The notes under the pieces were generated by a model. That model had not been told where the DNA came from and ran no database searches. It saw only the letters and a program-made list of their open reading frames with translations. A stretch of DNA of 64,000 bases from assembly GCF_003019035.1 (NCBI RefSeq), contig NZ_CP027447.1; one strand, written 5' to 3'. A program made the translations under genes and the position numbers. This document shows positions 8,495 to 8,608 of the stretch, piece after piece; position 1 is the stretch's first letter, and each line of letters starts with the position of its first letter. This DNA comes from Escherichia coli. GTDB taxonomy: Bacteria > Pseudomonadota > Gammaproteobacteria > Enterobacterales > Enterobacteriaceae.

Positions 8495-8608
8495 ATGTGG
8501 TATTTCGCATGGATTCTGGGAACGCTTCTTGCCTGTTCGTTTGGGGTAATCACCGCGCTGGCGCTTGAGCACGTCGAATCAGGCAAAGCCGGTCAAGAAG
8601 ACATCTGA
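8495..8608 (+). CDS. cydX: Cytochrome bd-I oxidase small subunit CydX (37 aa)
   Basis: Hand-translated MWYFAWILGTLLACSFGVITALALEHVESGKAGQEDI; below the track size cutoff; GGAG RBS upstream; overlaps ybgE start. Confidence 0.9.
   Translation: MWYFAWILGTLLACSFGVITALALEHVESGKAGQEDI

Follow-up and report, generated by a model that had tools for sequence, protein, structure and literature searches.

The window analysed here is a stretch of 64,000 nucleotides of Escherichia coli DNA (assembly GCF_003019035.1, contig NZ_CP027447.1), in which two very short genes, cydX (ybgT) and acrZ (ybhT), were followed up. The former is the third gene of the cydA-cydB-cydX-ybgE operon, whose elements lie as follows.

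5757..7325, + strand: cydA
7341..8480, + strand: cydB, with its stop codon at 8478..8480
8483..8488, + strand: Shine-Dalgarno (SD) sequence of cydX, AAGGAG, 6 nt before the ATG and 2 nt past the cydB stop
8495..8608, + strand: cydX coding sequence, ATG start, 37 aa plus TGA, translation MWYFAWILGTLLACSFGVITALALEHVESGKAGQEDI
8608..8901, + strand: ybgE, 97 aa, matching PF09600 and the NF007881 equivalog
8917..8952, + strand: A-run, GC hairpin and T-run after ybgE, AAAAATTTATGGGCC-GCTTCA-GGCCCATAAATTTTT

The cydX gene comes directly after cydA and cydB in the same orientation, starting 14 nt past the cydB stop, and encodes a protein in which 37 of 37 residues are identical to a chain of a solved structure (6rko_X, cytochrome bd-I ubiquinol oxidase subunit X); the sequence is present in nine PDB entries. 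It scores as a member of both PF08173 (53.9 bits, cutoff 26.2) and the CydX equivalog TIGR02106 (70.7 bits, cutoff 31.6), and its hydrophobic segment, with a best 17-residue Kyte-Doolittle mean of 2.12, is by this hydropathy measure that of a single transmembrane helix. PGAP/RefSeq calls cydX at the corresponding position in K-12 and SCU-301, and the gene is also called in BL21; the exact protein sequence was found, named as such, on at least 1000 contigs in a collection of 15 billion proteins, and the cydX region in 5425 of 5426 complete E. coli genomes. When set beside the CydX (YbgT; PDB 6RKO/6RX4) of K-12, all 37 residues, the position after cydAB, the 1-nt overlap with ybgE and the SD sequence are the same, and the one nucleotide by which the genes differ is synonymous, which leaves nothing of substance between them.

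A weak match to the NF011333 CbdX model might suggest CbdX/AppX, the paralogue from cytochrome bd-II, as the identity of the 37-aa protein; CbdX/AppX is likewise a short single-helix oxidase subunit with an N-terminus related to that of CydX. This assignment can be set aside outright, as the match reaches 21.7 bits, far under its cutoff of 57, against the high score obtained with the CydX equivalog, and as the gene of CbdX/AppX belongs to the appCB operon, at another place in the genome, whereas the gene found here follows cydAB.

Initiation at cydX was considered from both the sequence and published ribosome profiling, the latter taken from a reanalysis of Ribo-RET data from BL21 (bioRxiv 10.1101/2021.07.02.450978, Table S1) covering the + strand up to ~1.08 Mb. 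The AAGGAG sequence gives an anti-SD duplex energy of -8.4 kcal/mol, within the best ~15% of the 63 annotated window genes scored, and the initiation peak at cydX in BL21 amounts to 541 RPM. The same table assigns this single peak to both the ATG (at -16) and a GTG (at -14), and the GTG opens an overlapping ORF of 23 aa at 8497..8568 which has its SD in common with cydX; the RBS at 8483..8488 might thus serve this second frame instead of, or besides, cydX. The GTG is, however, an automatic by-product of the Met-Trp codons of cydX (ATGTGG), and it is the protein of the ATG frame which is seen in the structure (6rko_X).

The comparison of the locus across enterobacteria argues in the same direction. 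The loci came from one DNA-pattern scan of species-representative genomes which was keyed on a TolB motif and not on cydX, and they are therefore unbiased with respect to the gene. In all 19 enterobacterial loci spanning the cydB-ybgE junction, cydX is intact as an ATG-initiated ORF of 35-38 aa starting MWYFAW[IV]LGTL, and in all 19 it is placed after cydA/cydB on the same strand, with its start 13-19 nt past the cydB stop. An SD-like purine-rich motif precedes the ATG in each of the 19, of the GGAG type in most and only GAGAGG in one. Across the N-terminal 27 codons, the variable columns number 11, 4 and 23 at the first, second and third codon positions, and codon differences from the window are synonymous in 167 cases versus 55 non-synonymous; CydX is thus conserved as a protein across genera and is under purifying selection. 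The C-terminus varies among these loci, and its variability is also described in the literature. The peptide of the GTG frame, in contrast, varies freely across the 19 species, both in its sequence and in its length, which ranges from 23 to over 37 codons, and an initiation signal serving that frame, alone or alongside cydX, is hardly credible when set against the constant N-terminus of the ATG frame.

Downstream, the stop codon of cydX and the ATG of ybgE overlap by one base (TGATG at 8606..8610), an arrangement kept in 15 of the 19 orthologous loci. The SD of ybgE itself is weak (-2.4 kcal/mol), and the BL21 table gives no Ribo-RET peak for the start of ybgE; taken together with the overlap, this suggests that ybgE is translationally coupled to cydX. 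The element at 8917..8952 is probably the terminator of the cyd operon: the hairpin is kept, with its stem bases changed, in most of the aligned enterobacterial loci. A simple terminator scan left 8917..8952 unflagged.

From this arrangement, cydX would be translated off the cydABX-ybgE mRNA by means of its own strong RBS just past the cydB stop. VanOrsdel and co-workers reportedly found in 2013 that CydX is required for cytochrome bd-I activity. Passages of PMC6005532 and PMC4325964 describe CydX as needed for the activity of this oxidase, and passages of the same two papers state that CydX homologues of divergent species complement the E. coli deletion. Going by the membership and phenotype given in the literature, the 37-aa CydX helix would join cytochrome bd-I ubiquinol oxidase as its third subunit, and the enzyme would need it for activity.

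The second gene, acrZ, is a single-gene unit between the divergent genes modE and modA, and its context between modE and modABC has been described before (PMC4462101).

27684..28472, - strand: modE
28516..28530, + strand: MarA-binding site (marbox core) upstream of acrZ, the 15-mer ccacgcaaagctgac
28591..28594, + strand: SD sequence of acrZ, GGAG, 6 nt before the ATG at 28601 and abutting an in-frame TTG at 28595
28601..28750, + strand: acrZ coding sequence, ATG start, 49 aa plus TGA
28757..28790, + strand: intrinsic terminator of acrZ, a 9-bp stem with 5 GC pairs followed by the T-rich tail TCTTTTTCTC
28917..29690, + strand: modA

All 49 residues of the product coincide with those of chain 4c48_C, which bears the name multidrug efflux pump accessory protein AcrZ; this sequence is found in seven PDB entries, and a tagged 54-aa form of AcrZ is present in 5ng5 and 5o66. 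The protein is a member of PF10766 (102.9 bits against a cutoff of 26.2, with 47 of 48 profile positions covered); a search of the NCBIfam models gave no match, although NCBI names the protein. No difference was found from the known AcrZ (YbhT; PF10766; PDB 4C48, 5NG5, 6SGS), and the nucleotide sequence is also identical to that of K-12 acrZ, with the modE<>acrZ>modA context, the MarA site and the terminator all matching. PGAP/RefSeq calls acrZ in K-12 and in SCU-301, the position in the latter agreeing after correction for a 6-nt offset in tolA. The exact protein sequence was found, again under its own name, on at least 1000 contigs in the 15-billion-protein collection, whilst the acrZ region was found in 5391 of 5426 complete E. 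coli genomes, and the gene was annotated in all 30 records sampled across 94-100% identity. The E. coli record that diverges most (94% identity over the 471-nt region) has a single difference within acrZ (150 nt) versus nine in 151 nt upstream. These conservation data for acrZ refer to variation within E. coli.

The start codon of acrZ deserves some attention, as the ORF defined mechanically, from the first ATG, GTG or TTG after a stop, begins at TTG 28595 and is 51 aa long, and a 51-aa form is named "ybhT precursor" in older records such as that of CFT073. It is highly improbable that this upstream TTG is the true start. The GGAG abuts it without a spacer, giving an SD energy of -0.9 kcal/mol versus -5.9 kcal/mol for the ATG, the depositor sequences of AcrZ in the solved structures begin MLELL, and the current RefSeq start is the ATG; with no spacer and so low an SD energy at the TTG, ATG 28601 is the credible start of acrZ. 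Its energy lies near the median of -6.1 kcal/mol for the 63 annotated genes of the window.

The 15-mer ccacgcaaagctgac is assigned to the modE<>acrZ region in a table of MarA ChIP-seq sites (PMC5684230); its single exact occurrence in the window, against 0 expected by chance, is the one at 28516..28530, so that the published MarA site is present upstream of acrZ. The generic marbox consensus AYNGCACNNWNNRYYAAAY, with up to two mismatches allowed, gave 12 matches in the window against 17.6 expected, none of them near acrZ. As the ChIP-defined site is present and yet was missed, the consensus is too strict for the acrZ promoter. A scan for consensus sigma-70 promoters upstream of acrZ found none. 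Co-regulation of acrZ with acrAB by MarA, Rob and SoxS has been reported (PMC4462101), and if the published ChIP-seq binding is taken to apply here, the promoter region of this single-gene unit, which has a terminator of its own, would be bound by MarA. AcrZ binds the transmembrane part of AcrB and raises resistance to some of the substrates of AcrB, probably by an allosteric effect exerted together with cardiolipin (PMC7267776). Following the literature, the 49-aa helix would dock on the transmembrane domain of AcrB and would bias the activity of the pump allosterically in favour of certain drugs (chloramphenicol, tetracycline and puromycin). The gene for AcrB itself lies outside the window.

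Taken together, the two ORFs can be identified with near certainty (a probability of about 0.98) as cydX and acrZ, encoding single-helix inner-membrane proteins which act by binding much larger membrane complexes. The identification draws on identity to known sequences, on the surrounding genes, on conservation and on the signals read from the DNA (the ribosome-binding sites, the MarA site and the terminator), whilst membership of the complexes and the phenotypes are drawn from the literature. Full-length identity of 100% to chains of solved structures means that neither ORF arose by chance, and no evidence contradicting the identification was found. A first-pass annotation of this DNA had picked out both genes from the letters alone, and it was right in its coordinates, strands and lengths (37 aa at 8495..8608 and 49 aa at 28601..28750, both on the + strand) and in its names, on which structural identity and RefSeq position agree in both cases, together with the family models for cydX and PF10766 for acrZ. 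Its claim that each gene has a good ribosome-binding site is likewise borne out, for cydX by the AAGGAG read from the sequence and its duplex energy and for acrZ by the GGAG and an energy near the annotated-gene median. The finding is correct but ordinary, as cydX and acrZ are already known, annotated and structurally characterised; both are textbook cases of small proteins in bacteria, their structures solved and their annotation routine, and their recovery has little discovery value.

Both genes fall below the default cutoff of the ORF tool, which is 60 aa, and they illustrate that a fixed ORF-length cutoff hides real genes. Whether acrZ also falls below a cutoff of 50 aa depends on the start-codon rule, given the 51 aa of the mechanical ORF. 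The first-pass annotation went on to propose that other small ORFs in the intergenic regions could have been missed likewise, to be sought by small-ORF prediction with RBS scoring, and this prediction was run on all 336 start/stop combinations of 8-70 codons that had no more than 25% of their length within annotated features, cydX and acrZ being treated as unknown. Ranking by SD strength alone placed cydX second to third and acrZ about fifteenth among the 336, whilst ranking by hydrophobicity placed acrZ first, with cydX as the next independent ORF that has a good RBS. On the combined criteria of an ATG, an SD of -5.9 kcal/mol or better and a transmembrane-like segment, only cydX and acrZ were recovered from the 336 combinations. 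The principle behind the proposal is reasonable, but no other intergenic ORF matches the two genes on these criteria. Within this window, the combination of ATG, RBS and hydrophobic helix recovered exactly the two known genes, whilst SD strength alone put a terminator hairpin first.

The individual candidates were examined in turn and rejected. The ORF ranked top by SD, a 9-aa frame at 8915..8944 on the - strand (-8.8 kcal/mol), lies inside the palindromic hairpin of the probable cyd terminator, and its SD is not conserved. An ATG-initiated ORF of 45 aa at 26031..26168 (+ strand) shows 4 synonymous versus 11 non-synonymous differences from K-12 and is absent from the 15-billion-protein collection. 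A 47- or 59-aa ORF at 21446..21625 (- strand) has a TTG start or no SD and is unsupported beyond a few old "hypothetical protein" calls in E. coli/Shigella, and a 70-aa ORF antisense to acrZ (28613..28825, - strand) is similarly unsupported, being called "hypothetical" in automated annotation only. Several of the remaining candidates are absent from the 15-billion-protein collection, and the others appear there as a rare "hypothetical protein" in E. coli/Shigella. The region holds no other coding sequence below 50 aa in K-12 RefSeq. For most candidates the comparison with K-12 is uninformative, as the sequences are 97-100% identical.

Two unannotated ORFs with initiation peaks in the BL21 Ribo-RET data are exactly present at the DNA level in the window.

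12376..12447, + strand: tolB-internal ORF, 23 aa, ATG start, out of frame in tolB; 259 RPM in BL21
14688..14744, + strand: ORF after cpoB, 18 aa, MHNTRPEVALFLVVSCES, its ATG overlapping the cpoB stop (TAATG); 27 RPM in BL21

The peak of the former exceeds that at the start of tolB itself (131 RPM); this ORF lies in a gene and is not intergenic. Its ATG is kept in only three of 31 enterobacterial loci, with early stops in many of the others. The ORF after cpoB sits in a very stable hairpin (-29.8 kcal/mol, z = -4.3), and here it is the surrounding hairpin that is conserved across genera and not the start or the frame. As neither is conserved across genera, both look like ORFs which are translated but unselected, in line with the conclusion of the authors of the reanalysis, who consider most novel sORFs to be non-functional (bioRxiv 10.1101/2021.07.02.450978). 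It is very unlikely that either of the two encodes a functional peptide restricted to Escherichia, or that translation of one of them has a regulatory effect on the tol-pal genes or on the tRNA operon downstream. The broader proposition, that annotation has missed one or more other functional small proteins in the window, is somewhat less remote but still unlikely: the two peaks speak for it, and it is countered by their lack of conservation, by the failure of any third intergenic ORF to match cydX and acrZ, and by the fact that the candidate with the best SD is a terminator hairpin.

The BL21 table lists no Ribo-RET peak at acrZ, which is explained by the lack of the gene in BL21(DE3). In this strain (NC_012971.2, 746205..748349) a deletion joins a truncated galM to sequence just before ybhC, corresponding to approximately 21.6-39.7 kb of the window, and removes galKTE, modFE, acrZ, modABC, ybhA, pgl and ybhD-J; a common expression host is thus without acrZ. 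Of the 5426 complete E. coli genomes, 35 lack the acrZ region, and the galM-ybhC deletion plausibly accounts for at least some of these.

The reverse complement of SCU-301 (NZ_CP051751.1, 3315874..3379873) is the same as the window except for one 6-nt GCAGCT unit in tolA, and transfer of the SCU-301 annotation gave a clean translation for every complete gene. The window has one more of these repeat units than SCU-301, at position 11251, the sole difference found, and owing to this extra unit its tolA is 1266 nt long, as in K-12. K-12 MG1655 is collinear with positions 5381..64000 over approximately 771.1-829.2 kb, with 97-98% identity over most of the span. Positions 1..5380 are without a match to the K-12 locus compared (764.5-834 kb): upstream of cydA, K-12 carries mngR-mngA-mngB, whereas the window carries the methylaspartate mutase genes glmE, glmL and glmS, and this segment also encodes two hypothetical genes of 140 and 314 aa. 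Positions 1..7000 are covered to at least 80% in only 1130 of the 5426 complete E. coli genomes.

A variable segment, at 54100..56380, is an insert between ybhL and ybhN. It carries an additional paralogue of Bax-inhibitor-1, which starts with TTG, together with a ybhM-like gene that has diverged, a DUF3969 gene and a hypothetical gene of 73 aa. It matches at 99% or more only in SCU-301, the next best among the matches listed being ~93% identical, and positions 53500..57000 are covered to at least 80% in 749 genomes.

Three Rfam families matched above their gathering scores, all on the + strand: the CpoB/ybgF thermometer (RF02782, 13788..13926, 142 bits), the RtT RNA (RF00391, 14860..15028, 60.6 bits), which overlaps the first tRNA-Lys and the spacer downstream of it, and the Moco riboswitch (RF01055, 50423..50567, 103 bits), which lies before moaA. 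The Lys/Val tRNA cluster at 14853..15656 comprises seven genes as in K-12 (Lys-Val-Lys-Val-Lys-Lys-Lys), with spacers that are shorter and rearranged relative to those of K-12; the K-12 alignment in this part is broken into many overlapping repeat matches.
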